The notes under the pieces: model-generated
The model's database searches: none
What the model saw: the letters and a program-made list of their open reading frames with translations, nothing else
What the model was told of the DNA's origin: nothing
Shown: piece by piece, positions 2,288 through 64,000 of the stretch
Numbering within the stretch: position 1 is the stretch's first letter
Layout of the letters: each line of letters opens with the position of its first letter
From: Enterococcus phage vB_OCPT_CCS1
Length of the DNA: 64,000 bases
Reading direction: 5' to 3' (one strand)
Sequence record: ON113170.1
Position numbers and translations under genes: made by a program

Positions 2288-3025
2288 TTGTACTATATTA
2301 ATGGACGAAAGGACGTGATAAGTGTGGGACAATCAGATGGAATGGGTGGAACATTAAAAAGAATTGCTATTCAAGTTGGGGACGACCCAAACACAGGTTG
2401 GTATAGATTTCAAGTTAACCCAACTCAATATAAATACAGCAAACCACACCGTGTAACAATCTTTAAAACAAAGTCTAACATTATCACTGAGGACTTTGGT
2501 AAAGATATTGAAACCATTCAATTCTCTGGTACAACTGGATTTAGAAAAGACTCTAGAGGAATGAACGGTGCTGATAGATTAAGAGAACTATCAGATATGA
2601 TAGACGACTACGCAAATAAAGGTGGGAATGGGAACCGTCCAAAAGTAGAAATGAAGTTCTATAATTTTACTGATGACCAGTACTTTGTGGTTCATTTAGC
2701 CCCAGAGGGTCTCATAATAGAACGTTCTGCGGAACAGCCATTACTATTTACTTATACATTAAGCTTAGTTGTATTAAGAAAAGCAGGGGAACCTGCTGAA
2801 CGTGACCAAGTTAACCCAGAAATCGGAAATAAAAATCCTAGTGTAGGAGACAAAGACAAAGACACAAGAAGTGGTATAATTAGAACACCTGCACAGTTAC
2901 TACATGAACAGTATAAAAATTCTGTGTTGCCAAATATAGCAGTAAACCCTAGTGGTACATCTGGTGCCTATAACTACGGTTTAGTTGAGCTAAAAAGATT
3001 AATTGGTTACGGAGGTGGTCAATAA
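2288..3025 (+). CDS. baseplate/tail structural protein
   Basis: 245-aa ORF. An alternative GTG at 2333 has a better RBS (AAAGGA). Stop overlaps next start (ATAATGG). Confidence 0.45.
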   Translation: MYYINGRKDVISVGQSDGMGGTLKRIAIQVGDDPNTGWYRFQVNPTQYKYSKPHRVTIFKTKSNIITEDFGKDIETIQFSGTTGFRKDSRGMNGADRLRELSDMIDDYANKGGNGNRPKVEMKFYNFTDDQYFVVHLAPEGLIIERSAEQPLLFTYTLSLVVLRKAGEPAERDQVNPEIGNKNPSVGDKDKDTRSGIIRTPAQLLHEQYKNSVLPNIAVNPSGTSGAYNYGLVELKRLIGYGGGQ

Positions 3026-3561
3026 TGGCAACTGTATATCAATCTGCGGACTTGCTAAGATTCTTTCGTTACTTAAACGTAAACGTGCAAGGAGATGTCG
3101 TTAGTAATGTCATAGACGACCAACCTAACTTTATTTCTAGATTTTACACACCGCACACAAGAGTGAATAAAATATCTAGTACCTTATTAGATATTGTGAA
3201 AGACAATAACATTAGTGAAACAAATAAAGAGTTATCCAAGGATTCACTAACCTATAAGTTCTTGAAGAGTGGACTACGATTAACAGCTCCTGACATTTAC
3301 CAGTTAGCTCAAATCGTAGTACTTGAATCTTTTGCTTTAATTTATGCAATTGAAGAAAAACCTGAAATGTTCAAAATGATTAATGAATCAGATGTGAAAC
3401 AAACACGTGAAAACGTGAAGTATCTTGTGGACTACTTAGGGGAGAAAAAAGATTATACTGATATTGTAATGGATTTACACTCTATGGATATTGCCCTTGG
3501 TTATATTCAAGAACAGATTCCATTAATTCAAGGAGGGTTACCAGTAAATGGCACGATATAA
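3025..3561 (+). CDS. baseplate-associated protein
   Basis: Translationally coupled to both neighbours by overlapping stop/start. Confidence 0.45.
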   Translation: MATVYQSADLLRFFRYLNVNVQGDVVSNVIDDQPNFISRFYTPHTRVNKISSTLLDIVKDNNISETNKELSKDSLTYKFLKSGLRLTAPDIYQLAQIVVLESFALIYAIEEKPEMFKMINESDVKQTRENVKYLVDYLGEKKDYTDIVMDLHSMDIALGYIQEQIPLIQGGLPVNGTI

Positions 3562-4252
3562 GAAACATACAATCGTTTATGGAGAAACCATGCAATCCAT
3601 TGCTCAAATGGAGACAGGTTCTGTAAATGACTGGATAAAGATTGCTGAGTATAACTCCTTGGTTTATCCATACATAGTAGACACTATGCAGGAGAAGATG
3701 GCTAATATTGAACACCTAGCAACACCGGGAGACACCTTAGTGATTCCTGTAGAAGCTAATCTGTTAGACATGGATATTAACCACTTAAACCAACGAGACA
3801 TGGACTTCTTGCTTAGCCTCTCTTTAGGTAGAGATTTAGACATGACAAGTGAGACAGAGTACTACGAAAATCATGGTACAAGTGATGAGGTGTTCTCATT
3901 GACCCATAACGGGCACGGAGACCTTAAGACAGCCAGCGGAGCAGACAATATAAGGCAAGCTACTATCTCTCGTCTAATGACCGCTAAGGGGTCTTTAATG
4001 CTACACCCCGAATACGGAAGTAATTTACATTTGCTTTTCGGTAAAACCACTATTGAGCAGATGAAACTAATCAGCTTAGAAGTGTGCGAAACGGTACTAA
4101 AAGATACTCGAGTAGCTGAGTGTGTATTAGTCAGTCACTACATCGAAGAAGACCATTATGTAGGGAACTACAGAGCAACCATACAATCTACAAAAGACCA
4201 GTTTGAATTTGTAGTACAAAATGATAGTGTGGGCGCAATTGTGATAGAGTAG
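3548..4252 (+). CDS. baseplate wedge protein (gp25/GpW-like) with N-terminal LysM-like domain
   Basis: N-terminal YKKHTIVYGETMQSIA...PGDTLVIP fits the LysM pattern. The C-terminal half sits where a gpW/gp25-like protein precedes a J-like gene. Confidence 0.5.
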   Translation: MARYKKHTIVYGETMQSIAQMETGSVNDWIKIAEYNSLVYPYIVDTMQEKMANIEHLATPGDTLVIPVEANLLDMDINHLNQRDMDFLLSLSLGRDLDMTSETEYYENHGTSDEVFSLTHNGHGDLKTASGADNIRQATISRLMTAKGSLMLHPEYGSNLHLLFGKTTIEQMKLISLEVCETVLKDTRVAECVLVSHYIEEDHYVGNYRATIQSTKDQFEFVVQNDSVGAIVIE

Positions 4253-4266
4253 AAAGGAGTATCCCT

Positions 4267-5319
4267 GTGAGACTAAAGAAAATTTCAGAAATTTTAGGTA
4301 GACTAATTGACGTAACCATGATTAACACTCATGAGTTAAACGACTTCTCTGTAGGGTCTACGATTCGTTCCATTTATGAAGCTGTATCAATGGAACTTGA
4401 ACAATACTACATTTTAGGAAGAGAAAATATTTTATGGGGGATTGAGCAGGGGGTACTAAATGCTTTCGACTTTAGAAAACGTGAAGCCAAACGAGCTTAC
4501 GGTATGGTGACTCTAGAGTTCCATACTGTAACACAAACCCCTGTTTATGTCCCTACAGGTACAACTTTTGACTCTAGCTTGTCTGGTGCACCTAGTAACT
4601 TGACATTCCAAACAATGCGAGACTATGTGATTCCTGCCGGAGTTGTTACAGCAAAAGTAGAAGTTTACTGTACGACAGTAGGTTCGAAAGGGAACATTGC
4701 TAAAGGTAGAATCAATCGTGTTATTAACAACATCTCTAACCTGAAAAAAGTGTATAATGAATATGACATACTTACTGGTACAGATGAAGAAAGTATTGAA
4801 TCTGTGAAGAAAAGGTTCCATGCTTTTGTTGAGTCCCGTGGTAGAGCTACGATTAAAGCTTTAGATTACGGTACACGACAAGTAGAAGAGGTATCCGGTG
4901 TGTATATCAAAGAGGAAGTTGGTTATGTACGTATTTACGCTCATGACTTGAACGGGGACTTAAAAGGTGAAACACTAGCTAAAATCAAAACAGCTATTGA
5001 AGACTATCGACCTGCGGGAATTAAACTAGATGTGTTCCCTGTAGTCAAACTTACAGTACCAATTGATGTAACAATCACAATTAATAATAAAAACAGAATT
5101 AACACTGCACTAGAAGAAAGAATTGAACTAACTATCAGAAACTATCTAAACAGTCGTACAGTATCTCAAACATTAGTGAAAGCTGACTTGTTACAGGCTA
5201 TCATGAATATTGATGATAACTTAATATATGACTGCGTAATTAATAACTTGGATGGTAACTTAGATATTAGAGACGAGGAAATCATTCGTGCAGGAGATGT
5301 AACAATAGAATTAATCTAG
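4267..5319 (+). CDS. baseplate J-like protein (gp6 family)
   Basis: 350 aa, follows the gp25-like gene as in myovirus baseplate cassettes. GTG start after AGGAGTA. Confidence 0.5.
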   Translation: MRLKKISEILGRLIDVTMINTHELNDFSVGSTIRSIYEAVSMELEQYYILGRENILWGIEQGVLNAFDFRKREAKRAYGMVTLEFHTVTQTPVYVPTGTTFDSSLSGAPSNLTFQTMRDYVIPAGVVTAKVEVYCTTVGSKGNIAKGRINRVINNISNLKKVYNEYDILTGTDEESIESVKKRFHAFVESRGRATIKALDYGTRQVEEVSGVYIKEEVGYVRIYAHDLNGDLKGETLAKIKTAIEDYRPAGIKLDVFPVVKLTVPIDVTITINNKNRINTALEERIELTIRNYLNSRTVSQTLVKADLLQAIMNIDDNLIYDCVINNLDGNLDIRDEEIIRAGDVTIELI

Positions 5320-15600: not shown

Positions 15601-16096
15601 TTCCGGAACAACCGTCAATGACAAGCCTTGGGTTCCAATTGCGAACTACGTAGACTTAGATGTTAACCAGATTGCTCGTGAAGTTAAACTTCGTGCAACG
15701 TTTAAAGCAAACCAATATATTTCTCCAATGCTTGCATTAGACGATATTATGTTTGCCGGTTTCTTAACTGCCTTGAAGGGTAGCTACGTATCTCGTACAA
15801 TTGATTTATCCGAGGCTCCATACAACACTGTTAAAATGTCTTACGAACAGTTTACTCCTGCTGGAACTACTGTTGTTGCAAAATACAGTACTGACGAAGG
15901 TAAAACATGGAAGACATTCACTGCTCATCCTACAACAACACAACGTACGCAAGATTTCGTTCGTGTAGATTACGTTGAGAAGATTAATACGGGTGGAACA
16001 TTTAAATCCATTAAGTTCCGTCTTGACATGTCAACCCAGAACTCATTCCTTCGCCCGAGGGTGAGACGCTTAATGACGAATATGACCGACAAATAG
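12638..16096 (+). CDS. large virion protein (1152 aa), adsorption-associated/tail protein-like
   Basis: TTG start after AGAGAGGATG. Long uninterrupted ORF. It lies between the fibre genes and the replication module, as in SPO1-like myoviruses. Confidence 0.45.
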   Translation: MAKEITNDDLSKDPYLDRFEEDQNRTMVLFKPDKPLQQAELNEMQSMQNYALSNVAEAIFSDGDIQTGMEYILQGTTLTVKKGKVFLGGKMRNFNEQSIEITGRGTEYIGVKLVQKVITAEDDPTLLDQTSGVPSHFSEGADRLEETVVLGVNDDEASNIYRFENGQLYINPDTPEMDKINKVLAERTYDESGSYRVRGFDMYTEVHPTDPNNKIQLVIDSGRAYVLGFKVDKPTTTRIDIDKSRDLETINNEGFYYSNETRLNKLGNAPVSSVDRVTAQVEVAKEQVSRGVVGGGTDYLKNTSVTRVVRVWTEGSGAHEYTQGEDFQLVNGQAISWAPTGQEPPAGGTYFVQYVYNKTMIENTDYKVTVKGEGDNREWYIDFNEMTGSKPVDESLVNVDYKYFLARKDLIVLDHNGNFTVHKGQPNAMRLVDSPNHIDPLTLNIGTVLVYPDSSTAEAKQWTITRLTMEELQKLSVRVDNMEYNQAVFYLDQPAMAGENPIYLRGVFSDAFISLDKYDTSHPDATIAFDFDTAEITLPYAEINKTVPSIIEGSSEAHVWGRLVTAPFTEEVGIRQPFATEAMNVNPYNTFNKQGVLTLNPSADNWIEEERITITKEETSTMTIRQWWRHGGASWTNDEMNLVSNVDLDNGMNWSDLKDDYRKSGLSGTTLSSGGQQTKESMIEFMRQIDVEIYAENLEPNANNLVVSFDGLRVPVTPSSGYRRGSQEGTGMANADGTFKGVFKIPAGVRCGTREVSIRNDTNLASTTFTAQGTMKTTEDIIIRTHVTINLVDPLAQSFSFNTNRIATSFDVFFASKDSSTNIICQVRGISEGGQPNKTVYAERVLKPSEINVSDDASVATKITFDDPLMCKAGQEYCLVFITDSDKYTMWIATMGQNRIDDPTQSVNSNPYLEGVLYSSSNASAWSIHQMSDLKFTVYTAKFNEEAVLEFDVMRNINVDRVVLMSTYLTPANTGCKWDMKIVLNNEPSGTTVNDKPWVPIANYVDLDVNQIAREVKLRATFKANQYISPMLALDDIMFAGFLTALKGSYVSRTIDLSEAPYNTVKMSYEQFTPAGTTVVAKYSTDEGKTWKTFTAHPTTTQRTQDFVRVDYVEKINTGGTFKSIKFRLDMSTQNSFLRPRVRRLMTNMTDK

Positions 16097-16176
16097 AAGA
16101 TGTAACTGTAATGTAACATTTCTATGCCTCTTACTGTGGTATACTTATTGTATACGAAATAGTAGGAGGTTTTTTA

Positions 16177-17216: not shown

Positions 17217-17423
17217 ATGCCAGAATCATTTAGACAAAAATCATCAGGAGCTTTAATTTTTAGACCTACAGTTTCTGAGAAAATTCATTCTAACCAGATG
17301 AAAGCTCTTGCTAAAGATAAAGAGAAATTGAACAGAGACATACAAGAGGTTAATAATTTAAAACAAGAATTGACTAAGGAACTAGAAGAAATTAGAGAAC
17401 TAAAAAACAGGTTAAAAGGATAA
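17217..17423 (+). CDS. small coiled-coil protein (68 aa)
   Basis: ATG after AAGGAGA. Heptad-rich KEKLNRDIQEVNNLKQELTKELEEIRELKNRLK. Confidence 0.4.
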   Translation: MPESFRQKSSGALIFRPTVSEKIHSNQMKALAKDKEKLNRDIQEVNNLKQELTKELEEIRELKNRLKG

Positions 17424-17553
17424 AATGTCCTATTTTAAATTTTTGACCTCCTTATATATTTAATATTATATATTTAACTATTTATCTAAGTTATATGTAT
17501 TTATATATTATATATTTATATATAAGGGAACCAAAAATGGAAAATAGGACATT
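17422..17553. promoter_or_regulatory. AT-rich simple-sequence block flanked by ~14-bp inverted repeats; candidate origin/unwinding element or regulatory region
   Basis: AAAATGTCCTATTTT (17422-17436) and AAAATAGGACATT (17541-17553) are reverse complements. The interior is TATATATTTAATATTATATATTTA... Confidence 0.35.
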
Positions 17554-19407: not shown

Positions 19408-21051
19408 ATGACAAGTCAATGCTTAACAAATGAAATTCGAGCACAATATAGTCTAGGCAACGGAATTGTTGAGTTCGTTGAAAGATTAGCTAAAAAAGCA
19501 CAGCAATGGGGAGAAACATTTGCTACCCCTATACGCAAGACAACTGTAGCTGAGGAGATGGGACGTGACACACGTACTGTTACTCGGTATCTAGGACAAC
19601 TTGAAGAGTTGGGTCTTGTTAGTACAGAAGCAAAACGTGGTAGAAATGGAGGAACTGTTGTCGTGTTTAATACTGATATTCTAAATTTTGAACCAACTGA
19701 TAACCCGATTACTTCGGAGACAAAGGAAGCTAAGGAGATTCGTGAACGTGTCTTCCCAAAAGCACCAACTCCGAAGCCTAAAAGACGGTACCGTACAAAA
19801 TTAGAGATTGCAGAAGCTCGCATTTTAGAACAAAAGCAAAAAAGCTTTGAAGAACGCTTAAACGACTTACTTGAACGTACCTTCTTGGATAGAGACTTTT
19901 TTGATAATTTCGAAGAACCTCGTTTGTATTTCCAAGGGTATTTAATTGCACAAATGTACAATGCTTATGCAGTTATTTTCCCAAAGAATAGACATGAGTT
20001 CTTCAAAGATATTGATGTTAAAAAATCAGAGGAAGGTTTACGTAGTATGAACAAAGCTAAATCATACAACGTGTTACCTGCTCGTTTTGTAGGAACCCCA
20101 CAGTACAACAAATTTGTTGAAGTAGCTAGGTACTGTAATGAGAATAATATTAACCCATTATCTTATCTAACTGTTCAATTTGAGCGTGCAGAGCATTTAG
20201 CTGACATTGGTAAAGCTCGTGTAGGGGCTATTCCTTATGTAAACACTCTACTGTGTGAAGAAGCTCGTAAAGCTTATTCTGACAATGTAATGTTTTATCG
20301 TAAAATGCGTAATAGCTTTAACTTATTCGGTATGAGTAGTAGTTCTGTTCCGTATAAAGGGGCTAAATATGAGATTATTGTAGCTCTACGTACTGCGTAC
20401 GAATTAGATAGAACAACGAGAGATACTTTCAACTACTTATTAGACGAATTAGCTAGTGGTGCACAACAATCAGTGAAACAAGCAACCTTGTTAGGTTATT
20501 ACAATACTACTTTAAATGCTCTTTCAGAAAGTGATTTAGCAGATGAAGACCAACAATTAATCAGAGATTTCTTAAAAGAGCAAGTATTGCTATATTCACG
20601 TAAGAACTCATTGAGCAGTACTATCTATGCTTTAGCTTTCCCATTACAAATTAGCGCTGTTAATTCAGTTGCGACCCTAAAAGGTCTTGACAAAGAGATG
20701 TATTACACTTATATTGGTAATATGTACAAGGTTACAGATGTTAACGATGATGAATACGATAGTTTCACGGAACGTGGTCGAACAATTGACTTCTCTTACA
20801 ATGCTAATGATACTTTCTTTAGTACAATGCGATTAATTGCAGATTGTAAGGGTCTAGGAGTTCCGGCAGGTAAGCTAGGAAGCGCCTTACAAAAATTCGG
20901 TGAAGAAAAAGTTCCGTTAGATACTTTTGGTATGTTAGATATTGAACGTATCTATGATAAATTGATTGATTCGGATGAGTTAGCCAAAGACCGATATATT
21001 CAAGACAAAGATGCAACCATGATGAGTATGGTTGTGACTGACGAGGGGTAG
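19408..21051 (+). CDS. replication initiation (Rep)-like protein
   Basis: N-terminal winged-HTH-like segment TVTRYLGQLEELGLVSTEAKRGRNGGTVV. Conserved position between the two helicase genes. Confidence 0.4.
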   Translation: MTSQCLTNEIRAQYSLGNGIVEFVERLAKKAQQWGETFATPIRKTTVAEEMGRDTRTVTRYLGQLEELGLVSTEAKRGRNGGTVVVFNTDILNFEPTDNPITSETKEAKEIRERVFPKAPTPKPKRRYRTKLEIAEARILEQKQKSFEERLNDLLERTFLDRDFFDNFEEPRLYFQGYLIAQMYNAYAVIFPKNRHEFFKDIDVKKSEEGLRSMNKAKSYNVLPARFVGTPQYNKFVEVARYCNENNINPLSYLTVQFERAEHLADIGKARVGAIPYVNTLLCEEARKAYSDNVMFYRKMRNSFNLFGMSSSSVPYKGAKYEIIVALRTAYELDRTTRDTFNYLLDELASGAQQSVKQATLLGYYNTTLNALSESDLADEDQQLIRDFLKEQVLLYSRKNSLSSTIYALAFPLQISAVNSVATLKGLDKEMYYTYIGNMYKVTDVNDDEYDSFTERGRTIDFSYNANDTFFSTMRLIADCKGLGVPAGKLGSALQKFGEEKVPLDTFGMLDIERIYDKLIDSDELAKDRYIQDKDATMMSMVVTDEG

Positions 21052-41519: not shown

Positions 41520-42716
41520 ATGGAACTAATAAATTTAAGTGCTAGAACACTACCCGAATTACACGGGAAGTTTCTTGTTGTAGAGACTCTATCAGACGGA
41601 TACACAGGAACCGTAAACGGTCATTATAACTATGAAGTTGTTACTAAAGGTGAGGACTATGAAATCTATCCCACACTTTGGAACAGCGAAAAAGCGCAGT
41701 TTGTAAAAGCTGACGAAATGGTTGTGTATACAAACGGAGATACTGTATTCTATGTAACAAGAACAACAAAAGACCCTTATAATCATGCTGTTATCAGTGA
41801 GTTAATCGTTGAAGAAGGAATGGACAAGGCTAAGCGTACCCTTCAAGCTTTCCGACTATTCGCAGACGATTTATTCTCTATTGGAAACTATAACGTGTTC
41901 TTAACACACCAAATTGGTGTAGTAGACAGCCCAAGTAACGTAAAAGTTGAATCAGTTTCCTTAGACAAAGAATCCGGAACATTATATGTAGGTGACACAG
42001 TAGAATTAACAGCAACTGTACTACCAGAAAATGCCACAGTCAAAGACGTAACATTCTCTGTTGTTCCAGAAGGAATCGCTACTGTAACTGCTACTGGTGC
42101 CAAGGCAACAGTTACAGCTAAAGTAAAAGGCTCAACTAACGTTATCGTAACTACATTAGACGGAGACAAAACAGCTCAATATGCTTTAACAGTGAAGGAA
42201 CACGTTTTAGTTTCTGGTATTACTTTAAACAAAGAAGCTACTTCAATTGTTAAAGGTGCTACAGAAACACTTGTTGCAACAGTAACTCCACCAGATGCAG
42301 AAAACAAAGCTGTAACATGGGCATCTGATAAACCTGCCGTAGCTATAGTAGACCAAAACGGGGAGGTCACAGCAGTAGATGGCGGTACAGCTAATATTAC
42401 TGCAACAACAGTTGACGGTAATAAAGTAGCAACTTGTGTTGTGACAGTAACTGTTCCTGTAACAAGCGTTACTTTAAACAAAGAAGCTACTTCAATTGTT
42501 AAAGGCGCTACAGAAACACTTATTGCAACAGTTGCCCCTACTAACGCAACAAATAAAAAAGTAACATGGAAATCTGATAACATGGGCATTGTTACTGTAG
42601 CCCAAAGCGGAGAGGTCACAGCAGTAGATGGCGGTACAGCTAACGTAACAGCAGAAACAGAAGATGGTAAGAGAGTAGCTACTTGTGCGGTAACAGTTAA
42701 CCCTGCACAAGCATAA
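41520..42716 (+). CDS. virion-associated protein: N-terminal domain paralogous to the 42743 gene, fused to three Ig-like (Big_2) repeats
   Basis: N-terminus FLVVETLSDGYTGTV...DPYNHAVISE...FLTHQIG. Three Big_2 units, the last two nearly identical at the DNA level (LNKEATSIVKGATETL[VI]ATV.P). Confidence 0.5.
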   Translation: MELINLSARTLPELHGKFLVVETLSDGYTGTVNGHYNYEVVTKGEDYEIYPTLWNSEKAQFVKADEMVVYTNGDTVFYVTRTTKDPYNHAVISELIVEEGMDKAKRTLQAFRLFADDLFSIGNYNVFLTHQIGVVDSPSNVKVESVSLDKESGTLYVGDTVELTATVLPENATVKDVTFSVVPEGIATVTATGAKATVTAKVKGSTNVIVTTLDGDKTAQYALTVKEHVLVSGITLNKEATSIVKGATETLVATVTPPDAENKAVTWASDKPAVAIVDQNGEVTAVDGGTANITATTVDGNKVATCVVTVTVPVTSVTLNKEATSIVKGATETLIATVAPTNATNKKVTWKSDNMGIVTVAQSGEVTAVDGGTANVTAETEDGKRVATCAVTVNPAQA

Positions 42717-56423: not shown

Positions 56424-56494
56424 TTGACAGTACTAGTACAAGATGTTAACATGTTTATGTACAAGAAAACAAATCAAGGAGAGATGTACAGATG
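56424..56494 (+). repeat. 71-bp promoter/operator/RBS cassette, copy 2
   Basis: Exact duplicate of 56056-56126. Confidence 0.7.
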
Positions 56495-58894
56495 AAACCA
56501 TTCGAAGACATTCTTGATGTGTTGAACAAAGCACGTCAGGACAAAGACAAGGTAACACTTACTTTTATTGAAGGACTAGATAATATTGCTAAACTTCAAA
56601 TTGAGGATTCTTCTGCTACAGCAGGAATCACTCGTTACGTAAAGTTTTATAACAATGACATCCGTAAGTTCCATTACGTTGACCAAGCTGATTTTGAAGA
56701 AATGTATGCAGGCTTAGAAATGAAAACAGGTAAACCAAAAGAAGAAACAATTGAGTTTCCTTCTGAGGAAGTGGGTATTATCAGTGCTTTAAAAATCTTG
56801 CAACAAAGTGGTGTCTTTAGTGATGAAGATGGAATGCTAACTCTAGGAATTAACACGTCTACATTGAAAGATGCTCACTATATCTTACAGTATATTGAGC
56901 CTGCAATTGACCGTTACTTTGAATCTTTGAATAAGGATATTGAAGAATTAGACCGTGTAACGATTGACCAATCAGATGAACTTAAACAAAAAATCTGGGA
57001 AAGCTTTGTATTTAGCAAAGATAATCTAAGCAAAATGCTAGATGACTTTGAATTGGCAACTCTAGACACGTTCCCAAATGTACCGTCTAATTTAATTGTT
57101 GAGACTTGTTCAGAAGTGAAGAAAACTCTTGAAGGGTTATTGATTAAAGATGCGGAAGAAAATCCTATTGAGTGTCATGATTACCTTGTTGAAGGTTTCG
57201 TTGGTGCTATTATCCGTATTGAACAATTTATTATTTCTGTTGCAACATTACCTTACCGTAGAACAGAACTAGAACTTAGAGAATCAAGAGAAGCTTATAT
57301 CAAAGAGCTTGCTTCAAATCTATTTATCTTTGCAGAAGCTATTGCTCAGGCGTATACTAGACTTGTATGCTCTATCTTAATGGAAAATTCTATTGATATG
57401 CACAATGCTTCTGAATATATCCAAGTTATGGAAACAAAAGCGGTTCACTGGGTAAAAGAAGAAGCATTAGGTGGAACTATGTTAGCTAACAATGAGGAAG
57501 ACCTCGTTGAGTTATCCCAAGCTTTAAACTCTATGACACTAGATGACGTACGTGAAACCCGAGAAGACCCCGAGAAGGCTGAGTTTAAAGAAGCTTTGGA
57601 AGAATTGCTTAATGAGTTGGCAGATGTTTTTTCAGAAGACGAGGACGACGAAGAAGTTGACGAAACAGAAGACGAAGATGAGGAAGAAATAAAACAAGCC
57701 TTATTAGAATCACTAGAAGACCTGTTACGTTCAATTCAAGCCCCTACTATGGAAGAAGGGGAAGAAGACAATGAGGCACTTTTCGAAGCACCTATGGTAG
57801 ACATGGATGACCTCCTTGGATATTCACTATCGAAGGAACCTACAGAAAAAGAAGAACCTGTAGAACTTTCAGATGATGCAAAAGCAGAGTTTGAGGAATA
57901 CTTTGCAGATGAAATCTACGAGCTTCAAGAACTCCGTAAAAAGGTAGAAGATGCTTTAACCATGTACGATAAGGTTACCGGTGAACTAGCATTAAACGAG
58001 TTAGATTCAGTAGCTATGGGAAATATTCAATTAGCAATTTCAACGTTACGAAGAGCGCTAGATAACACAGAGCTTGACTACACTAAGAAAGGCTTACTTG
58101 AATCGTTAGCTATTCTTAAAGGAGACAAACATACTTTTTATGTTGAATCCATTAGTGTTTTAGGAGATGCGTACGAGCTTTACAAAACACTTGGTGTAGG
58201 TATTACGGACTATGCACATGCAGTTGTTGAGGGCATTGAATGTTCTGTTGCGAATAAACGGGGTACAAACCCAGAAACACAATTTGTGTTGAGTACAGTT
58301 ACCCGTTTAATCGAACGTGAAATCGAAGCCTTAGAGGATGCTGAAGAATACTCAGATTTATTAGCCTTTTCTCTAGCCCTTTCACTGACTGCTGTGTTAG
58401 CAGATTGGAATAATTCATTTGGTGTAGTAAATGTTGATGTAAATGACTTTATCCCTAAGAAACGACCTTCTGTTGTTGTCGAAGGAGACGAAGAGGATGA
58501 AGAAGAAACAACAGACCTAGCTAAAGAGTTAAAAGACTTAATTCGTGGAACAGCACTAGATGCTGATACACAATCAGCTAGTGATATAGACGAAGAAGCC
58601 TTGATTGCTGACTACAAGAACGGTGTCTCACAGAGAGAACTCACAAAATGTTATAATATAAGTACAGGGAAGTTCTACTCAATTCTACGTAGACACGGTA
58701 TCGCAGTAGATAGCTCTAAAGTAGCTAAGAAAGTTGCGCATGTAGAAGAGAATCCAGAAGTACTTGAACGAGTTCTTAAAGATTATATTGAAGGTAAAAC
58801 ACTAGCATATATTTACTCAAATTACAATCTATATAAGAACGGCTTGTTCTATTTGCTAGACAAATACCAAGTTCCACGTAGAAACAAACGTTAA
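56492..58894 (+). CDS. 800-aa highly acidic protein with two C-terminal HTH-like motifs
   Basis: Asp/Glu tracts (DEDDEEVDETEDEDEEE; EGDEEDEEETTD). C-terminal LIADYKNGVSQRELTKCYNISTGKFYSILRRHGI and a second HTH-like repeat. Confidence 0.5.
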   Translation: MKPFEDILDVLNKARQDKDKVTLTFIEGLDNIAKLQIEDSSATAGITRYVKFYNNDIRKFHYVDQADFEEMYAGLEMKTGKPKEETIEFPSEEVGIISALKILQQSGVFSDEDGMLTLGINTSTLKDAHYILQYIEPAIDRYFESLNKDIEELDRVTIDQSDELKQKIWESFVFSKDNLSKMLDDFELATLDTFPNVPSNLIVETCSEVKKTLEGLLIKDAEENPIECHDYLVEGFVGAIIRIEQFIISVATLPYRRTELELRESREAYIKELASNLFIFAEAIAQAYTRLVCSILMENSIDMHNASEYIQVMETKAVHWVKEEALGGTMLANNEEDLVELSQALNSMTLDDVRETREDPEKAEFKEALEELLNELADVFSEDEDDEEVDETEDEDEEEIKQALLESLEDLLRSIQAPTMEEGEEDNEALFEAPMVDMDDLLGYSLSKEPTEKEEPVELSDDAKAEFEEYFADEIYELQELRKKVEDALTMYDKVTGELALNELDSVAMGNIQLAISTLRRALDNTELDYTKKGLLESLAILKGDKHTFYVESISVLGDAYELYKTLGVGITDYAHAVVEGIECSVANKRGTNPETQFVLSTVTRLIEREIEALEDAEEYSDLLAFSLALSLTAVLADWNNSFGVVNVDVNDFIPKKRPSVVVEGDEEDEEETTDLAKELKDLIRGTALDADTQSASDIDEEALIADYKNGVSQRELTKCYNISTGKFYSILRRHGIAVDSSKVAKKVAHVEENPEVLERVLKDYIEGKTLAYIYSNYNLYKNGLFYLLDKYQVPRRNKR

Positions 58895-58952
58895 CTTCCA
58901 AATAACTTTAGGCAGTGGCTACTATGGTCACTGCCTTTAATAAGGAGAATAT

Positions 58953-59405
58953 TTGTTGGAAGAGACGGTTTATAATTTTATACAAGGTTTAACTAACACA
59001 CAGTTAGTTATACTAGAAGATATATTTGCTTTACTAGGACTAATCTTTATACTTATAGGAATACATCTTTTGGTAGAAGATACAGTTGAGTGGGTGAAAC
59101 TAGTTAAGAATCCAAAAGTTTCCACGTTTGCAACAATACACATGTATTTTACTTTTTATCTACCGATGTTCATTTTCTTTTTGGTAGATGGTAGTACGGT
59201 TACTACTTTTGTTGTTTCATTACTGATGTTTGCTGTTGTGTATACATGGATTGTCTGGTTTCGGGTGGGTAGATACACAGAAAATTGGTCAGTAGTACGT
59301 CCATTTGTTACCTACATTAAAGCACAAGACCATGTGTGTACGTTAGTTATTGGTTCAATACTTTTAAGAACAGTACTATTTTTTATAAAGATTAGGATAG
59401 GTTAA
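58953..59405 (+). CDS. polytopic membrane protein (about four TM helices)
   Basis: TTG after AATAAGGAGAATATTTG. Hydrophobic spans LVILEDIFALLGLIFILIGIHLL, YFTFYLPMFIFFLV, FVVSLLMFAVVYTWIVWF. Confidence 0.5.
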   Translation: MLEETVYNFIQGLTNTQLVILEDIFALLGLIFILIGIHLLVEDTVEWVKLVKNPKVSTFATIHMYFTFYLPMFIFFLVDGSTVTTFVVSLLMFAVVYTWIVWFRVGRYTENWSVVRPFVTYIKAQDHVCTLVIGSILLRTVLFFIKIRIG

Positions 59406-59432
59406 GATAGGATAGGATGGAGGATAAGATAG
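59395..59432. repeat. TAGGATAGGA-type short array immediately upstream of a start codon
   Basis: GATTAGGATAGGTTAAGATAGGATAGGATGGAGGATAAGATAGATG. Confidence 0.55.
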
Positions 59433-59993
59433 ATGAATGAAATAATGAGTTATGTTTGGTTGGGTGTGTTTATTGCTATACCTGTAATTGGCTTTATCTA
59501 TGTATATAACTACAATAAAAAAAATCCACGTTGGTACCTTCGTAAAAGCTATTGGGCGCCACTAGTGCTAGACTTAGTTGTTTTTGGTGTTTGGGCGTTT
59601 ATAGGTATAGGTACATTGGATGTTGGACATACAGAGACAATTGTTAAAACCTTTAACATTGAGCCACTTACTGTTTATAGCTCACCAGAAAATATTTATG
59701 CAAAGATAGGTAGCACGGATAACAGTTATGTTAACTTTGCAATTACAGGTAAGGGAACTCACTCTGCACCACTTGGTAACACTAGTATCCATTACGTTGA
59801 GTACGAAGGTAGACCGAAAGTCATGGTTACTTACTACAAATTAGATTCCCCTCTCTCAGCATTTATGGGAATACAAGGGATGCTTGTAGACAGTAAAACT
59901 CGTATAGACATTCAAGTTCCTATAGGCGGAGTCGATGTTACAAATACAGGTAGCACCTTTGAAGAGCAATCAGTAAACGACTTACTCAAATAA
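59433..59993 (+). CDS. N-terminally membrane-anchored protein (186 aa)
   Basis: One or two N-terminal TM helices (VWLGVFIAIPVIGFIYV; LVLDLVVFGVWAFIGIG) followed by a soluble domain. Confidence 0.5.
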   Translation: MNEIMSYVWLGVFIAIPVIGFIYVYNYNKKNPRWYLRKSYWAPLVLDLVVFGVWAFIGIGTLDVGHTETIVKTFNIEPLTVYSSPENIYAKIGSTDNSYVNFAITGKGTHSAPLGNTSIHYVEYEGRPKVMVTYYKLDSPLSAFMGIQGMLVDSKTRIDIQVPIGGVDVTNTGSTFEEQSVNDLLK

Positions 59994-59996
59994 TTC

Positions 59997-60060
59997 CCTA
60001 AGTAGCAGGCTACAAAAATCCTCTAAGTAGCAGGTTACAAAAAAACCTAAGTAGCAGGCT
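59997..60060. repeat. three direct ~25-bp repeats, CTAAGTAGCAGGCTACAAAAA type
   Basis: Each unit contains GTAGC-N2-GCTAC inverted arms. Same family as the 62444-62615 array. Confidence 0.6.
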
Positions 60061-60092
60061 AGAGACATCTTTTATAGGTGTCTCTTTTTTTG
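60061..60092 (+). terminator. rho-independent terminator
   Basis: AGAGACATCTTTTATAGGTGTCTCT followed by TTTTTTTG. Confidence 0.7.
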
Positions 60093-60171
60093 TTGACATC
60101 CCTATACAATCATGCTACGATATACATGTAGATAAGGGAAGCCAGAATAAATAAAAAATTTGAGCTTACCT

Positions 60172-60200
60172 ATTGACATTAAACAATGCAGGCTGTACAA
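60172..60200 (+). promoter_or_regulatory. strong sigma-A-type early promoter with conserved leader
   Basis: TTGACA-17-TACAAT followed by AGACTTGTAAGATAAAA. Confidence 0.6.
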
Positions 60201-60235
60201 TAGACTTGTAAGATAAAACAAAGGAGGAAATTACA

Positions 60236-60472
60236 ATGGAAAAACAAAAACAAGTGATTACAAGAAAACAATACGAGGAAATTATGGCACGTTATGACAA
60301 GGTAGACTATGCTATCATCGCAGGGTTCATTATCTTTGGTACAGTTATCTTTGGTTTCGGGGGATTTGTCTTTATGGCTGTTGTTGGTGCGTTTACGTTC
60401 CCACGTATGAAACAAAAAAGCATTAATTTAATAGAGCAAGACTACATTGTTAGAGATGACATTCAACAGTAA
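60236..60472 (+). CDS. small membrane protein (78 aa)
   Basis: Central hydrophobic span AIIAGFIIFGTVIFGFGGFVFMAVVGAF. Confidence 0.45.
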   Translation: MEKQKQVITRKQYEEIMARYDKVDYAIIAGFIIFGTVIFGFGGFVFMAVVGAFTFPRMKQKSINLIEQDYIVRDDIQQ

Positions 60473-60533
60473 GCTTAATTGTTGACTATGGAAATTACAG
60501 GTGTTAATATAATGGTACAAGGAGGACAAAGAA

Positions 60534-60782
60534 ATGGCAGAGGCAAAGAAAAGCTATGCTGACATGACAGAGGAGGAAGCACAATATGCAATGGTATTAG
60601 GTGCTAGAATCGCTCATGCACGAGAAGGGTTAGGTATTAGTCAAGGAGAACTAGGTAAGTTAGCAGGTTTCAATCAAACAACTATCTCTTTAATTGAGAC
60701 CGGTAAACGGCTACCTAACTTAAAGACCCTTATCAGATTGAGTAAGATTCTTAAAAAAAGTTTGAAAATTACATTGGAATGA
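60534..60782 (+). CDS. XRE-family helix-turn-helix regulator (82 aa)
   Basis: LGISQGELGKLAGFNQTTISLIETGKR is a Cro/CI-type HTH. Confidence 0.55.
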   Translation: MAEAKKSYADMTEEEAQYAMVLGARIAHAREGLGISQGELGKLAGFNQTTISLIETGKRLPNLKTLIRLSKILKKSLKITLE

Positions 60783-60814
60783 GGTAGAGAAAATAAAACA
60801 GGGGGAGATTTATT

Positions 60815-60925
60815 ATGACAACGAAAGTAAAAGAAACAAAATCAAAAGTAAAGAATGGTGAACGTACACCAATAGTAGGATTCTATTTATATAATTTAAG
60901 AGTCCTGATTCTACCGTATATTTAA
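60815..60925 (+). CDS. small 36-aa ORF with strong RBS
   Basis: GGGGGAGATTTATTATG. Its end is embedded in a 9-bp-stem hairpin. Confidence 0.3.
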   Translation: MTTKVKETKSKVKNGERTPIVGFYLYNLRVLILPYI

Positions 60926-60950
60926 CAGGAATGTGCGGTAGAATTTTATT
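60908..60950 (+). terminator. stem-loop terminator
   Basis: ATTCTACCG-17 nt-CGGTAGAAT followed by TTTTATTTAT. Confidence 0.5.
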
Positions 60951-60963
60951 TATACAAACCTAT

Positions 60964-60992
60964 TGACAATAAACAATAGAAGAGTTATACTA
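60964..60992 (+). promoter_or_regulatory. sigma-A-type early promoter
   Basis: TTGACA-17-TATACT. Confidence 0.55.
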
Positions 60993-61017
60993 TGTATGAA
61001 GATAAGGAAAGGGAGAG

Positions 61018-61350
61018 ATGACAATGTTAAACTTTAACAAACATGTAACAGTAGAGGATATTATTAGAGATGGAGAATATGACGATGCAGTGGTAGAACA
61101 TATTATTGCTGAACTAGAATCGAGTGACAAGAAGAAACTAGCTTTGTTCAAACAGTGGGTCGCAGACAAGAAGGAAGACGGAGACACGGAAGCTGTTGAA
61201 CACTTTAAAGATATGACGGACAAAGAAGTATTAGTATATATGGACTTAGATGAGATTGTAGAGTACTATGAAGAAACAGGTCTTGCAGATTTTGCAAACA
61301 GCTTGGACATTGATTGGACAGGTTTGCTAGAAAGTTTTGGAGTAGAATAG
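61018..61350 (+). CDS. hypothetical acidic protein (110 aa)
   Basis: ATG after AAAGGGAGAG. Confidence 0.45.
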   Translation: MTMLNFNKHVTVEDIIRDGEYDDAVVEHIIAELESSDKKKLALFKQWVADKKEDGDTEAVEHFKDMTDKEVLVYMDLDEIVEYYEETGLADFANSLDIDWTGLLESFGVE

Positions 61351-61363
61351 GGGGTTAAGACTA

Positions 61364-61852
61364 ATGTATGATATGGTAACTAAAAAGAAAAGAAATCAAG
61401 AAATTGTACGTATGAGACAAGCAGGAAAAACGTTTAAGGATATTGCTTCTGAGTATAACATTTCTCAACAACGAGTACAACAGATATACAAACGAGAAAC
61501 CTCGTTAAATAAGATTAGACCTAAAGCGGGTAGACCAAGAAAGGACGAAATTGATGAGAAACGAACAGACATTAGTACTTTTGCAGTAACGAAGAGACAG
61601 AGAGAAAGAATAGTTCAACAAGCTGAAAAGGAAGGAAAGCCAGTTAAGGAGGTAGTTGATTCTATTATTTTTAATACAATGAGTGGGAAATACAACAGCC
61701 TTTTCCATAAAAAAGGTGGAGATAACAAACAGGTTCCTATGGTAGGGAATAAACAACTGTTAGATGCTTTACGTGCATATCTTGGTGCATATGAGGAAAC
61801 CCCATCAGAGGCGTTAAGACTAGTTATAGATAGGATATACGGGGATGAATAG
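61364..61852 (+). CDS. HTH DNA-binding protein (sigma-70 region-4-like)
   Basis: EIVRMRQAGKTFKDIASEYNISQQRVQQIYKRE. Confidence 0.5.
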   Translation: MYDMVTKKKRNQEIVRMRQAGKTFKDIASEYNISQQRVQQIYKRETSLNKIRPKAGRPRKDEIDEKRTDISTFAVTKRQRERIVQQAEKEGKPVKEVVDSIIFNTMSGKYNSLFHKKGGDNKQVPMVGNKQLLDALRAYLGAYEETPSEALRLVIDRIYGDE

Positions 61853-61990
61853 CTATTAGGATAGGATGATAGGATACACTTAGGATAAGGTAGGATAGGA
61901 TAAGGTAGGATAGGTTTAGGATAGGATACACTTAGGATAGGTTTAGGATAGGATACACTTAGGATAGGATAGGATAGGATGAAAGGGGAT
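61852..61990. repeat. ~135-bp array of TAGGATAGGA/AGGATACACTTAGGATAGG units
   Basis: GGATAGGATACACTTAGGATAGG occurs three times; also GGTTTAGGATAGGATACACTT twice. Ends 10 nt before the ATG of the next gene. Related to 59395-59432. Confidence 0.65.
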
Positions 61991-61998
61991 ATGATACA

Positions 61999-62448
61999 AT
62001 GTTAGGTACAGCAGAATATGATACACTTAGAGAGTATTTAGTAGCCGTAATTCATAACCAAATTAGTGAGGGTGAGAGAGACACACAAAGCTTAGACGTA
62101 TGGAAGGAAGAGGTTGACAAGCTGACAGTAGACAATTGGAGAGAACGTTGCATGAACCTAGCAGATTTGTTATATGTAGACACTCCCGCTTCACTGGCAG
62201 ACATTTACAAAGACTATAAAGAGGAGCTAAATGAAATACTCAGAGATTACACAGATGAGTTACGTGCAGGAGCTACGTTCAATAAGGTAGCTGATGAGCG
62301 CCTAGGGTGGATGTGGGAAGATTATGACCCATTAATACTAGAAGCACATAATCAAGGTCTAGTGGCTCGTCTAGGGCTTCTAATCGTTGCTGAACAACTT
62401 GCTACTCAATTAGAACAAGGGACGTTTACAATACCATATGATAACTAA
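61999..62448 (+). CDS. hypothetical acidic protein (149 aa)
   Basis: ATG directly downstream of the TAGGATAGGA array (GAAAGGGGATATGATACAATG). Confidence 0.45.
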   Translation: MLGTAEYDTLREYLVAVIHNQISEGERDTQSLDVWKEEVDKLTVDNWRERCMNLADLLYVDTPASLADIYKDYKEELNEILRDYTDELRAGATFNKVADERLGWMWEDYDPLILEAHNQGLVARLGLLIVAEQLATQLEQGTFTIPYDN

Positions 62449-62615
62449 GTAACAGGCTAGCCTAAGTAACGGGCTAGCTTTTTTCTTCTAAGTAGCAGGT
62501 TAGCTAAAATTCTCTAAGTAGCGGGCTACAATAAAAAACCCTAAGTAGCGGGCTACAAAAATCCTCTAAGTAGCGGGCTACAAAAATCCTCTAAGTAGCG
62601 GGCTACAAACAGCTT
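62444..62615. repeat. seven direct ~25-bp repeats, CTAAGTAGCGGGCTACAAAAATCCT type (iteron-like array)
   Basis: Units at about 62444, 62467, 62497, 62520, 62545, 62570 and 62595. The last three are essentially identical. Each contains GTAGC-GG-GCTAC. Confidence 0.7.
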
Positions 62616-62700
62616 ATAAAGTTCCGAAGCGTGGCATCCGACCGCCAGACTTGCCACCTTTGCCCGTTTGATCTGCCACCACTTAAACCCGTTTTTTCCT
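62616..62700. other. GC-rich island (about 60% GC) directly after the iteron-like array
   Basis: GTTCCGAAGCGTGGCATCCGACCGCCAGACTTGCCACCTTTGCCCGTTTGATCTGCCACCAC with a GTGGCA/TGCCAC stem and repeated GCCACC. No ORF. Confidence 0.4.
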
Positions 62701-62832
62701 TATATATAGAAGAAAAAGTTTTTCATCTTTTTTAGTGTTTTATATTGACATTAAGAAATAAGCATGGTATAGTATAGACAGTTAAAGAAAGGAGCTAACA
62801 AAAAAATAAATAAAAAAATTTAAAAAAAGTTA

Positions 62833-62861
62833 TTGACAAAAAGAAATAGACCTGATACAAT
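62833..62861 (+). promoter_or_regulatory. strong sigma-A-type early promoter with conserved leader
   Basis: TATTGACAAAAAGAAATA...TACAAT followed by AAACTTGTAAGATAAATAA. Confidence 0.6.
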
Positions 62862-62898
62862 AAACTTGTAAGATAAATAAAAGAAAGAGGGACTAAAA

Positions 62899-63174
62899 AT
62901 GGAAAAACAAATTATTGTAAACTTTTTAAAAGAGATTGAAAAAAATATTAAAATGGTAAACAGGGGTTTAAAATCTGAAAATGAGGCATACAGCGAACTT
63001 GTCGGAATGTATAACGGTATTAAGTTAGCAATGAAAACAATCAATCCCGACACGGTAAACATGGATTTGCATTATACACGTAAAACACTTGACAACTTAT
63101 TTTTAGGAACAAACGAGCAAAAAGAAAACGCCTTAAAAGCTTTGGAAAATGCTTTACTAATTACAGAAAACTAA
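62899..63174 (+). CDS. hypothetical early protein (91 aa)
   Basis: ATG after AAGAAAGAGGGACTAAAA. Confidence 0.45.
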   Translation: MEKQIIVNFLKEIEKNIKMVNRGLKSENEAYSELVGMYNGIKLAMKTINPDTVNMDLHYTRKTLDNLFLGTNEQKENALKALENALLITEN

Positions 63175-63184
63175 CATATAAAAC

Positions 63185-63203
63185 GGCGGGACACGTTCCC
63201 GCC
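63185..63203. terminator. GC-rich stem-loop, probable terminator
   Basis: GGCGGGACACGTTCCCGCC. A-tract upstream but a weak T-tract downstream. Confidence 0.35.
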
Positions 63204-63239
63204 TTACATAAAAAAATAAAAAATTTTTATGTTTATCTA

Positions 63240-63268
63240 TTGACAAAAAGAAATATAGATGATAATAT
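63240..63268 (+). promoter_or_regulatory. sigma-A-type early promoter
   Basis: TTGACA-17-TAATAT. Confidence 0.5.
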
Positions 63269-63296
63269 AAAGACATAGAAAGAGAGAGGGGAAAAC

Positions 63297-63425
63297 ATGA
63301 AAAGAGTAAAAGCCTTTTTAATCGCAAGAAAGGAAAATAAAGAAGTAAAAGAGATTTTACAGACAAGAAGCAAGGCAATAAACGAGCTTAAAAATTTAAA
63401 TAAAAAACTTATACAAAACTATTGA
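63297..63425 (+). CDS. small 42-aa basic ORF
   Basis: ATG after AGAGAGAGGGGAAAAC. Not in ORF track. Its end overlaps the -35 of the next promoter. Confidence 0.3.
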   Translation: MKRVKAFLIARKENKEVKEILQTRSKAINELKNLNKKLIQNY

Positions 63426-63450
63426 CAAAAAGAAATAAACGATATATAAT
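63422..63450 (+). promoter_or_regulatory. strong sigma-A-type early promoter
   Basis: TTGACA-17-TATAAT followed by AAATATGTAAGGTAAAACAAGGAGG. Confidence 0.6.
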
Positions 63451-63485
63451 AAATATGTAAGGTAAAACAAGGAGGAAAAAGAAAC

Positions 63486-63674
63486 ATGCAAAAGAAACTA
63501 TACAAGAAAAGAGATTTTTATAAAAAGCTGGCTTCATTCGCTGTTATGTTTTTACTTGGTTCAGTTGTTACGGCGGTATTTTCGTTTACAGTGTCACTTA
63601 TTATCGGCTTGACTTTGTTCGTTTTTGCTTTTATGATTTTCGATGATTTAGATTATACAGTAAAAAATAAGTAA
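63486..63674 (+). CDS. small membrane protein (62 aa)
   Basis: Two hydrophobic spans (LASFAVMFLLGSVVTAVFSFTV; LIIGLTLFVFAFMIF). Confidence 0.45.
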   Translation: MQKKLYKKRDFYKKLASFAVMFLLGSVVTAVFSFTVSLIIGLTLFVFAFMIFDDLDYTVKNK

Positions 63675-63694
63675 AAAAAATTAATCAAATCTAT

Positions 63695-63723
63695 TGACAT
63701 TAAACAATAAACAATATATAATA
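63695..63723 (+). promoter_or_regulatory. strong sigma-A-type early promoter with conserved leader
   Basis: TTGACA-17-TATAAT followed by AAACATGTAAGATAAATAAG. Confidence 0.6.
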
Positions 63724-63758
63724 AACATGTAAGATAAATAAGAAAGAGAGTGATAAAA

Positions 63759-64000
63759 ATGGAAAACACAAAAAAATATACATTAGAGGACTTGAAACAA
63801 CTAGCAAAAGAAAGCGGGTTTGAAATTGAGGAGGTAAAACCAAAATTACACGATATTAATCGTTATTATTGGAGCGGTAGCATTTATGGCGGTTCAGACT
63901 TCATTTTTATTGACCACGATTTAAAAATTATTGTAACAGGTAACACACGAGCAACAAAAAGCGACATGTATACAAGAAATAACACGGAATGCAAACGAAA
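63759..64000 (+). CDS. early protein, 3' end truncated by window edge
   Basis: ATG after AAGAAAGAGAGTGATAAAA. Reading frame open to the end of the window. Confidence 0.4.
   Translation, partial: MENTKKYTLEDLKQLAKESGFEIEEVKPKLHDINRYYWSGSIYGGSDFIFIDHDLKIIVTGNTRATKSDMYTRNNTECKR

Follow-up and report, generated by a model that had tools for sequence, protein, structure and literature searches.

A Repeat Element Common to Enterococcus and Listeria Phages

The 64,000-nucleotide stretch of Enterococcus phage vB_OCPT_CCS1 analyzed here (record ON113170.1; hereafter the window) contains two arrays of a 16-base motif, CTAAGTAGC-N-GGYTAC, with three copies at 59998–60062 (array 1) and seven at 62445–62606 (array 2), all on the + strand. 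Judged by its distribution among relatives, the motif is a lineage-specific, strongly conserved cis-element common to the Herelleviridae of Enterococcus and Listeria, where it is part of a module with a second repeat family. The arrays are very probably a selected protein-binding DNA element, and most likely consist of clustered 16-bp sites that a sequence-specific DNA-binding protein would recognize. As to mechanism, the preferred reading, by analogy with known systems, is that they may form an iteron-type replication origin (probability of roughly 0.35–0.4).

A search of the window with CTAAGTAGCRGGYTA, allowing at most two mismatches, gives 10 matches, all confined to the two arrays and to the + strand; the shuffled sequences used as a control average 0.44 matches and never exceed 3. 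This confirms the repeats, which had been noticed at array 1 from the letters alone (the sequence-only reading) as three direct units in one orientation. Tandem Repeats Finder agrees, reporting 59997–60061 with a period of 25, 2.7 copies, and 85% matches. The three units of array 1, of the type CTAAGTAGCAGGYTAC/G, start at 59998, 60023, and 60047, i.e., at spacings of 25 and 24 nt, and lie in the 3′ untranslated end of an open reading frame (ORF) coding for a 186-aa membrane protein. The expected larger array of the same family is found downstream on the same strand, with units starting at 62445, 62462, 62488, 62514, 62541, 62566, and 62591, and the two arrays do bracket a small gene block. 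The first two units of array 2 are 17 nt apart; otherwise the spacing is 24–28 bp across both arrays. Unit 1 of array 2 contains the TAA stop codon (62446–62448) of a 149-aa ORF. Hence, both arrays show what is usually asked of iterons: at least three direct repeats of a 15–22-bp motif, in one orientation and at roughly regular spacing.

Each unit of array 1 had also been credited with GTAGC and GCTAC inverted arms, in the shape of a dimer-binding site. The arms are perfect in unit 1, but imperfect in unit 2 (GGTTAC) and unit 3 (GGCTAG). The core is indeed partly dyad, but its consensus, C-TAAGTAGC-N-GG-Y-TA-C/G, is asymmetric: the left part, TAAG included, carries about 2 bits per position, and the right arm is less strict. 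Since TAAG, on the left, varies no more than the dyad does, conservation is lopsided, and the idea of a dimer site is therefore only partly right.

Distribution and Conservation of the Motif

The window belongs to an Enterococcus Schiekvirus (Herelleviridae, Brockvirinae): the region is 84%–95% identical to 35 Enterococcus phage records of this genus, the closest being vB_Edu_21C1. Among these phages, the arrays are present at every covered site, with two to three units in array 1 and five to eight in array 2. Since the intervening genes are not the same in all relatives, the array starts are 2.4–4.3 kb apart, depending on the phage. Kochikohdavirus genomes have one array of four to 14 units (four in EF24C, 14 in phiEF7H), placed directly after an ortholog of the 149-aa ORF and a terminator. 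In the Listeria Pecentumvirus (P100, A511, LP-083-2, and CKA15), six copies are scattered over about 550 bp of noncoding DNA, at irregular spacings of 24, 34, 68, 69, and 334 bp and with unrelated flanks, and one further copy is found upstream of a DNA-binding-protein gene. Overall, phages of the P100/A511 type have 6–7 scattered copies in a noncoding stretch of 1.2 kb. The sequence-only reading was to be given up if the arrays proved absent or unconserved in close relatives; they are present in all those examined. The search for further copies elsewhere in the genome, also suggested at that stage, finds none in the complete genome of iF6 (156,592 bp) beyond the two arrays, except for one weak match with two mismatches in a coding region.

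With three units as the query, BLAST finds matches in 68 Enterococcus and 53 Listeria phage records, and in none from a Staphylococcus phage. For family-wide marker proteins, that collection has 68 Enterococcus and 54 Listeria records, a comparison of totals and not record by record. Outside these phages no arrays turn up: a two-unit pattern run over 185,579 bacterial and archaeal genomes returns only a Schiekvirus contaminant contig and one chance match, and pattern scans of IMG/VR find multicopy loci only in the same Enterococcus and Listeria phages. The region of Kayvirus G1 that was examined contains neither the motif nor comparable arrays, and Kayvirus is motif-free in the regions and collections examined. 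A string search for the 16-bp motif found no paper in the literature that could be searched.

Within the element, conservation is very unevenly distributed. The positions of C-TAAGTAGC-N-GG-Y-TA-C carry about 2 bits each in Schiekvirus, Kochikohdavirus, and Pecentumvirus, and the spacers 0–1 bit. Across the three genera, whose intergenic DNA is otherwise unalignable, there is free variation in the center base and the spacers, in the spacing, and in the number of copies. A fixed core with free spacers and copy number is the pattern one would expect of a protein recognition site. One might instead see in the arrays a neutral minisatellite without function, given that copy number ranges from 2 to 14, but a minisatellite would hardly keep an identical core in three genera that share no other alignable intergenic sequence, nor reach record totals so close to those of the marker proteins, and the Listeria copies are dispersed and nontandem. 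This explanation of the arrays is extremely improbable.

The identity of the 16-bp sequence between phages of two host genera, the near-full record counts, and the absence from bacterial chromosomes together point to a previously undescribed protein–DNA interaction that would be essential or strongly beneficial. The confinement of the motif to phages, and not their hosts, argues for a phage-specific system, and the putative binder is probably phage-encoded. The repeats noticed in the window thus belong to a more general phenomenon than the window alone could show.

Solitary copies of the motif (GTAAGTAGCAGGCTAG, CAAGTAGCAGGCTAC, and CTAGTAGCAGGCTAC) occur inside coding regions of relatives, on the + strand (L002 at 5642, L003 at 5633, L016 at 3658, and L020 at 43 and 7505). 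The chance expectation for such near-matches is about 0.05 per genome.

A Module with Two Repeat Families

The second repeat family, TAGGA/TAGGATAGG, is common to Schiekvirus, Kochikohdavirus, and the Listeria Pecentumvirus, and it is always upstream of the copies of the 16-bp motif. The window has two such arrays on the + strand, TAGGA array A (59393–59432) just 5′ of the 186-aa ORF and TAGGA array B (61857–61986) just 5′ of the 149-aa ORF. The 186-aa ORF (59433–59993, +; phrog_33649) is thus enclosed between TAGGA array A and array 1, and the 149-aa ORF (61999–62448, +), which codes for an acidic protein with a pI of 4.2, between TAGGA array B and array 2. Among relatives, arrays of this family are found, for example, at 4415–4760 of locus L026 and 16027–16160 of locus L024, and a degenerate equivalent lies upstream of the ortholog of the 149-aa ORF in phiEF7H. 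The TAGGA arrays have stop codons in all three frames and repeat a Shine-Dalgarno-like AGGA.

The order of the module is (TAGGA)n, an optional ORF, an intrinsic terminator, the motif array, a spacer, and an AT-rich stretch with tandem early promoters. In phiEF7H, this becomes a TAGGA-type array, an ORF, a terminator, 14 units, a GC-rich spacer, a TATATA palindrome, and an early promoter. In CKA15, two TAGGA tracts, (TAGGA)27 and then (TAGGA)33, are each followed by a terminator; next come six copies of the motif, and after them tandem TTGACA promoters within an AT-rich stretch. The module, probably untranscribed for the most part, marks the junction between the end of a long rightward block of middle and late genes and a cluster of strong sigma-A early promoters that runs into the right terminal repeat, 5–7 kb before that repeat.

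The Listeria version of this region has already attracted attention. The multi-omics study of CKA15 describes a 1.2-kb stretch as a "relative transcriptional dead zone" by RNA-seq and suggests that it is an origin of replication, noting the TAGGA repeats and an 80% AT segment, but not the 16-bp motif (PMC12282133). The dead zone of this P100-like phage has the same CTAAGTAGC-N-GGCTAC core, in six copies, at the same place of the genome map. The combination of (TAGGA)n, the 16-bp core, and tandem early promoters at the late/early junction is found in the window, in CKA15, and in LP-083-2, and the dead zone of CKA15 appears homologous to the module of the window. The two differ in that the CKA15 copies are dispersed instead of tandem, with no ORF between the repeat families, and the origin proposed there was itself inferred.

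The promoter-stem-loop cassettes of T4-type phages suggest another role for such a module, in which both repeat families would be conserved joints that flank exchangeable cassettes and promote their shuffling or deletion by homologous recombination. The succession of TAGGA array, ORF, and motif array is indeed found twice in the window around unrelated ORFs; in the Listeria phages, the two families are about 100 bp apart, separated by noncoding DNA with a terminator and no ORF; and the variable length of the inter-array block and the rapid change in unit number fit such exchanges. However, the deletions that can be seen in the window have their ends within repeated promoter cassettes and not within the 25-bp units, and the deletions selected in the experimental evolution of EfV12-phi1 lie elsewhere and not between arrays, both of which weaken a recombination role. 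An identical 16-bp core with drifting spacers is also unlike recombination substrates, which need long identical tracts. A function as recombination linkers is unlikely.

Transcription Signals and RNA Structure

The strong terminator that had been seen next to array 1 is well defined: a stem-loop at 60061–60085 with 10 pairs and a loop of 5, followed by T7 (60061–60092, +). Unit 3 of the array is fused to it, the last base pairs overlapping with the stem. A second intrinsic terminator (62454–62487, +), which serves the 149-aa ORF, lies within array 2, where the 3′ parts of units 1–2, with their 17-nt spacing and a GCTAGC variant, form a hairpin (62454–62480) followed by a T-run. Because units 1–2 make up this hairpin, units 3–7 are downstream of the terminator. 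GC-rich hairpins with a T-run are found at these two places, and the remaining units form none.

Two tandem sigma-A-type early promoters (TTGACA-17-TACGAT and TTGACA-17-TACAAT, at 60093 and 60173; 60093–60201, +) directly follow the terminator of array 1. Array 2 is followed by a noncoding spacer with about 50% GC (62607–62697, +), which is kept within Schiekvirus and not between genera, and then by an AT-rich zone of 18%–24% GC (62698–62900, +) with an imperfect TATATA palindrome at its start and two tandem early promoters (62745–62773 and 62833–62861).

The repeats might conceivably act at the RNA level, as a 3′ untranslated element that serves as the site of an RNA-binding protein, as a processing site, or as an mRNA stabilizer like the repetitive extragenic palindromes (REP). 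Every copy lies on the sense strand, transcription covers array 1 and the copies in coding regions, and neighboring units are able to pair with each other. But most copies lie past predicted terminators: this is the case for the units of Kochikohdavirus, units 3–7 of Schiekvirus array 2, and the Listeria cluster, the last being also silent by RNA-seq, which covers the Listeria-phage region only. RNA folding is significant at array 1 (z = −3.7), where the significant fold is the terminator itself, and ordinary relative to shuffles at array 2 (z = −1.15). A single unit allows a stem of only 4–5 pairs, and no covariance model of Rfam 15 matches at E ≤ 1 in 58800–64000. Nor do the units resemble palindromes of the REP or bacterial interspersed mosaic element type, given their short stem, single orientation, mostly post-terminator location, and fold no better than that of shuffled sequence. 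An RNA element is therefore distinctly unlikely, and a function at the DNA level via predicted protein recognition is the best-supported reading: the copies are mostly post-terminator, the Listeria region is silent, the fold of array 2 is ordinary, and Rfam has no match.

Among functions at the DNA level, the main rival of a replication origin is a transcription boundary or insulator, in which a protein bound to the array would act with the terminators as a roadblock or as a nucleation site for silencing. Such a boundary could keep middle and late transcription out of the early host-takeover genes or help to shut these genes off later. Each array borders on a terminator or includes one. Unit 3 of array 1 overlaps a terminator stem, units 1–2 of array 2 are one, and the Kochikohdavirus terminator is immediately upstream of the array; a T-run also comes after the solitary copy upstream of the tandem-HTH (helix-turn-helix) gene of the Listeria phages. 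At some 13 separate positions in the three genera, the copies are without exception on the transcribed strand; the first tandem early promoters always begin 30–170 bp downstream of the arrays; no transcription is seen in the Listeria region; and stop codons occur in two or three frames of either repeat family. On the other side, intrinsic terminators work without assistance, the region has many other predicted terminators and early promoters that lack the motif, and the uniform orientation may merely reflect local duplication where all genes point one way. Furthermore, we know of no phage protein of such a roadblock or boundary kind in Herelleviridae. A boundary function is thus conceivable but somewhat unlikely.

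Genome Ends and Packaging

Packaging recognition sites had also been considered for the arrays, and mapping the physical genome ends had been suggested to see whether they coincide. The termini of iF6, determined by restriction analysis and RAGE (which rapidly amplifies the ends of a genome), show a direct terminal repeat 2108 bp long (PMC10054541). The record of iF6 has array starts at 145843 and 149290 and the right terminal repeat at 154485–156592; hence the repeat begins 5.06 kb to the right of array 2, and the motif is at neither of its borders. The terminal repeat of phage 163, obtained with PhageTerm, has the same relative position (PMC9860891). Because the mapped termini of both phages lie elsewhere, the arrays are not the genome ends, and a role as packaging sites is not supported.

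A terminase recognition site or terminal-repeat border would otherwise have had some appeal, since direct-repeat arrays are typical of small-terminase binding sites and the GenBank records of several relatives start or end at arrays. These record starts are better explained, however, by assembly breaks at tandem repeats, and given the RAGE and PhageTerm results we regard such a site as very improbable. In A511, the cluster reportedly lies about 7 kb before the terminal repeat, taking the repeat length that Klumpp and colleagues are said to have given in 2008.

The records that begin at or beside arrays are PP582184 (position 30), JX126918 and KJ094029 (position 16), and MN939539 and MN939540 (position 1). 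These starts are likely breaks of short-read assemblies at tandem repeats, not physical ends. The arrays and the neighboring (TAGGA)n tracts probably interrupt short-read assemblies in general and thus set arbitrary record starts.

A Possible Replication Origin

The preferred interpretation is an iteron-type origin. Several initiator copies would assemble on the repeats, where they would bend the DNA or wrap it around themselves, and they would open the adjacent AT-rich stretch, aided by transcription from the neighboring early promoters, as at the lambda origin. The smaller upstream array of Schiekvirus would be an auxiliary site. The anatomy is consistent with this, as it includes direct repeats with a period of about 25 bp, a partly dyad core, and a stretch of 18%–24% GC that begins about 90 bp beyond array 2. 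This zone (62698–62900) is a possible unwinding element, and its equivalent in iF6 is the fourth lowest-GC 200-bp window of that genome.

Several observations weigh against an origin, and confidence in it is accordingly modest. Early-promoter cassettes make up the AT-rich stretch, and further regions with such promoters are just as rich in AT; iF6 has three windows of lower GC than the zone next to the array. The copy number, the irregular spacing in Listeria phages, and the single copies in coding regions make the element looser than iteron origins of the classical kind. There is no enrichment of DnaA boxes, and GC skew only tracks the direction of transcription. Moreover, no gene for a replication protein is found in or beside the arrays, and each array is in contact with a terminator or next to one, an arrangement at least as well suited to a transcription boundary.

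A rival origin candidate can be named in iF6 (L027), where the lowest-GC stretch of the genome (44391–44600, 15.5%) has a 48-nt inverted repeat around a TATA-rich core and is located beside the tRNA block, at a switch in gene orientation. The position is similar to that of the origin proposed for phage K. In the window, the lowest-GC 200-bp stretch (17326–17525, 19%) includes a (TA)n-type tandem repeat at 17452–17523. It is just upstream of the gene of a UvsW-like helicase (17617), the first of the replication module, and may represent a further candidate for DNA unwinding or else a strong promoter.

These phages have practical importance, as Enterococcus Schiekvirus and Kochikohdavirus and Listeria P100 and A511 are therapeutic and biocontrol phages. 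To our knowledge, next to nothing of their replication origins or cis-acting control DNA has been mapped. If the arrays are truly an origin, they offer a handle for engineering, for origin-trap vectors, and for the study of replication in Herelleviridae. If they are instead a boundary or an element of DNA ejection (see below), they would represent a new kind of organizer of the phage chromosome.

Candidate Binding Proteins

If the arrays are an origin, a candidate binder would be the Rep-like protein with an N-terminal winged HTH (HTH_36) encoded at 19408–21051 (+), between the genes of the UvsW-like and DnaB-like helicases. The three genera with the motif retain its putative recognition helix (RTVTRYL), which is different in Kayvirus, where no motif was found in any of the regions and collections examined. 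The whole protein shows the same gradient of identity (51%, 40%, and 23%), so the covariation of the helix, which is compatible with binding, is explained by phylogeny. Both this and the distance of the gene, 41 kb from the arrays, tell against the origin.

The 800-aa protein with a C-terminal tandem HTH (56492–58894; phrog_1303) was rejected as a binder. It is single-copy in 551 Herelleviridae records, including those of Staphylococcus and Bacillus phages, in which no motif was found, and its helices are equally conserved in Kayvirus, which has no motif in the regions and collections examined. Being family-wide and equally kept in Kayvirus, it does not track the motif. The homolog in Listeria phages has one motif copy about 90 bp upstream of its gene. 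The N-terminal 650 aa of the protein are extremely acidic, the net charge of the whole being about −94, and the Kayvirus homolog consists of the tandem-HTH domain alone (147 aa).

The 149-aa ORF was likewise discarded as a conserved partner of the arrays. It has an ortholog at the same position in Kochikohdavirus and no homolog in Listeria phages, even in profile comparisons. Two small HTH proteins, one of 82 aa (Cro/CI) and one of 162 aa, are encoded between the arrays, in the variable block.

A ParB-like protein was also considered and set aside, as it is confined to Schiekvirus, unlike the motif; in iF6 it is encoded about 115 kb from the arrays. This bears on the earlier suggestion that the arrays resemble parS centromere sites, which is not supported. 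The ORFs neighboring the arrays include no partition operon with a ParA-type ATPase and a centromere-binding protein, and the relatives are strictly lytic Herelleviridae with long terminal repeats (PMC9860891, PMC10054541).

Comparison with Known Systems

The lambda origin has four 19-bp iterons with imperfect inverted repeats beside an AT-rich tract, and there are six units in Stx phages (PMC7466680). The arrays share with it direct repeats in one orientation, partly inverted units, an AT-rich tract, a strong promoter nearby, and a variable number of units. The iterons of lambda are inside the initiator gene, however, whereas the arrays have no adjacent initiator gene; they are also looser (2–14 units, scattered in Listeria phages), and between array 2 and the AT-rich tract there is GC-rich DNA of about 90 bp.

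The ori and crr of satellite phage P4 are two separated clusters of octamer repeats bound by the alpha primase-helicase. As in P4, the window has two clusters of one repeat in the same orientation, a few kilobases apart and bracketing genes. But Kochikohdavirus and Listeria phages have a single cluster, and there is no homology to P4. The centromere arrays sopC of the F plasmid, parS, and parC provide another parallel, being made of tandem units of partly redundant copy number. The arrays resemble sopC in having tandem units each with a short inverted repeat and in their variable copy number, but they differ from it in lacking a ParA/ParB operon, in belonging to a strictly lytic phage, and in that the ParB-like protein is restricted to Schiekvirus.

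Closer in phylogeny is the putative origin of Kayvirus phage K, an untranscribed region of 450 bp with 21% GC and two direct repeats (PMC9241854). Like the module, it is an untranscribed noncoding stretch of a Herelleviridae genome, proposed as an origin for being silent, AT-rich, and repeat-bearing; it differs in its map position, by the tRNA and lysis region.

The injection-stop signal of T5 is a repeat-rich noncoding stretch at the inner edge of the first-step-transfer DNA. The module similarly borders the earliest-expressed genes on their inner side, its distance from the right end being 4.7% of the genome in iF6 and about 7.6% in A511, but it has no sequence similarity to the T5 stretch. 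One might imagine both repeat families as a lineage-specific, polar organizing center of the phage chromosome, i.e., a stop for DNA ejection or a polar barrier to forks or translocation, which would hold apart the early region by the right end (about 5%–8% of the genome) and be bound by small proteins encoded next to it. We know of no two-step DNA entry in Herelleviridae, and such a center is a highly doubtful reading. In CKA15, two proteins encoded beside the module, one of them a basic protein of 96 aa, are found in virions despite being outside the structural module (PMC12282133).

Genes between the Arrays and Other Features of the Window

The variable gene block between the arrays (60236–61852, +) codes for a 78-aa membrane protein, the 82-aa Cro/CI HTH protein (60534–60782), a 110-aa acidic protein, and the stump of a 146-aa gene, as well as for the 162-aa protein, which is basic and of the HTH_28/HTH_23 type (61364–61852). 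The 146-aa gene follows the Cro/CI gene in relatives; here it is reduced to a 36-aa stump after the deletion of about 385 bp (60815–60945, compared with 2819–3660 of locus L014). A cassette with a 43-aa gene of vB_Edu_21C1 is also absent, the loss falling between two copies of the early-promoter cassette.

These early-promoter cassettes, of 50–110 nt, have TTGACA-17-TATAAT, conserved flanks, and a shared leader, TGTAAGATAAA. They are repeated at 60153–60217, 60950–60998, 62743–62774, 62813–62877, 63210–63271, 63402–63466, and 63674–63738, so that nearly every small gene is preceded by one, as is typical of a host-takeover region. Far from the arrays, the window has a 249-bp tandem duplication (42220–42687; 1.9 copies, 81% identical) within a coding region, which probably encodes a repeated Ig-like domain.

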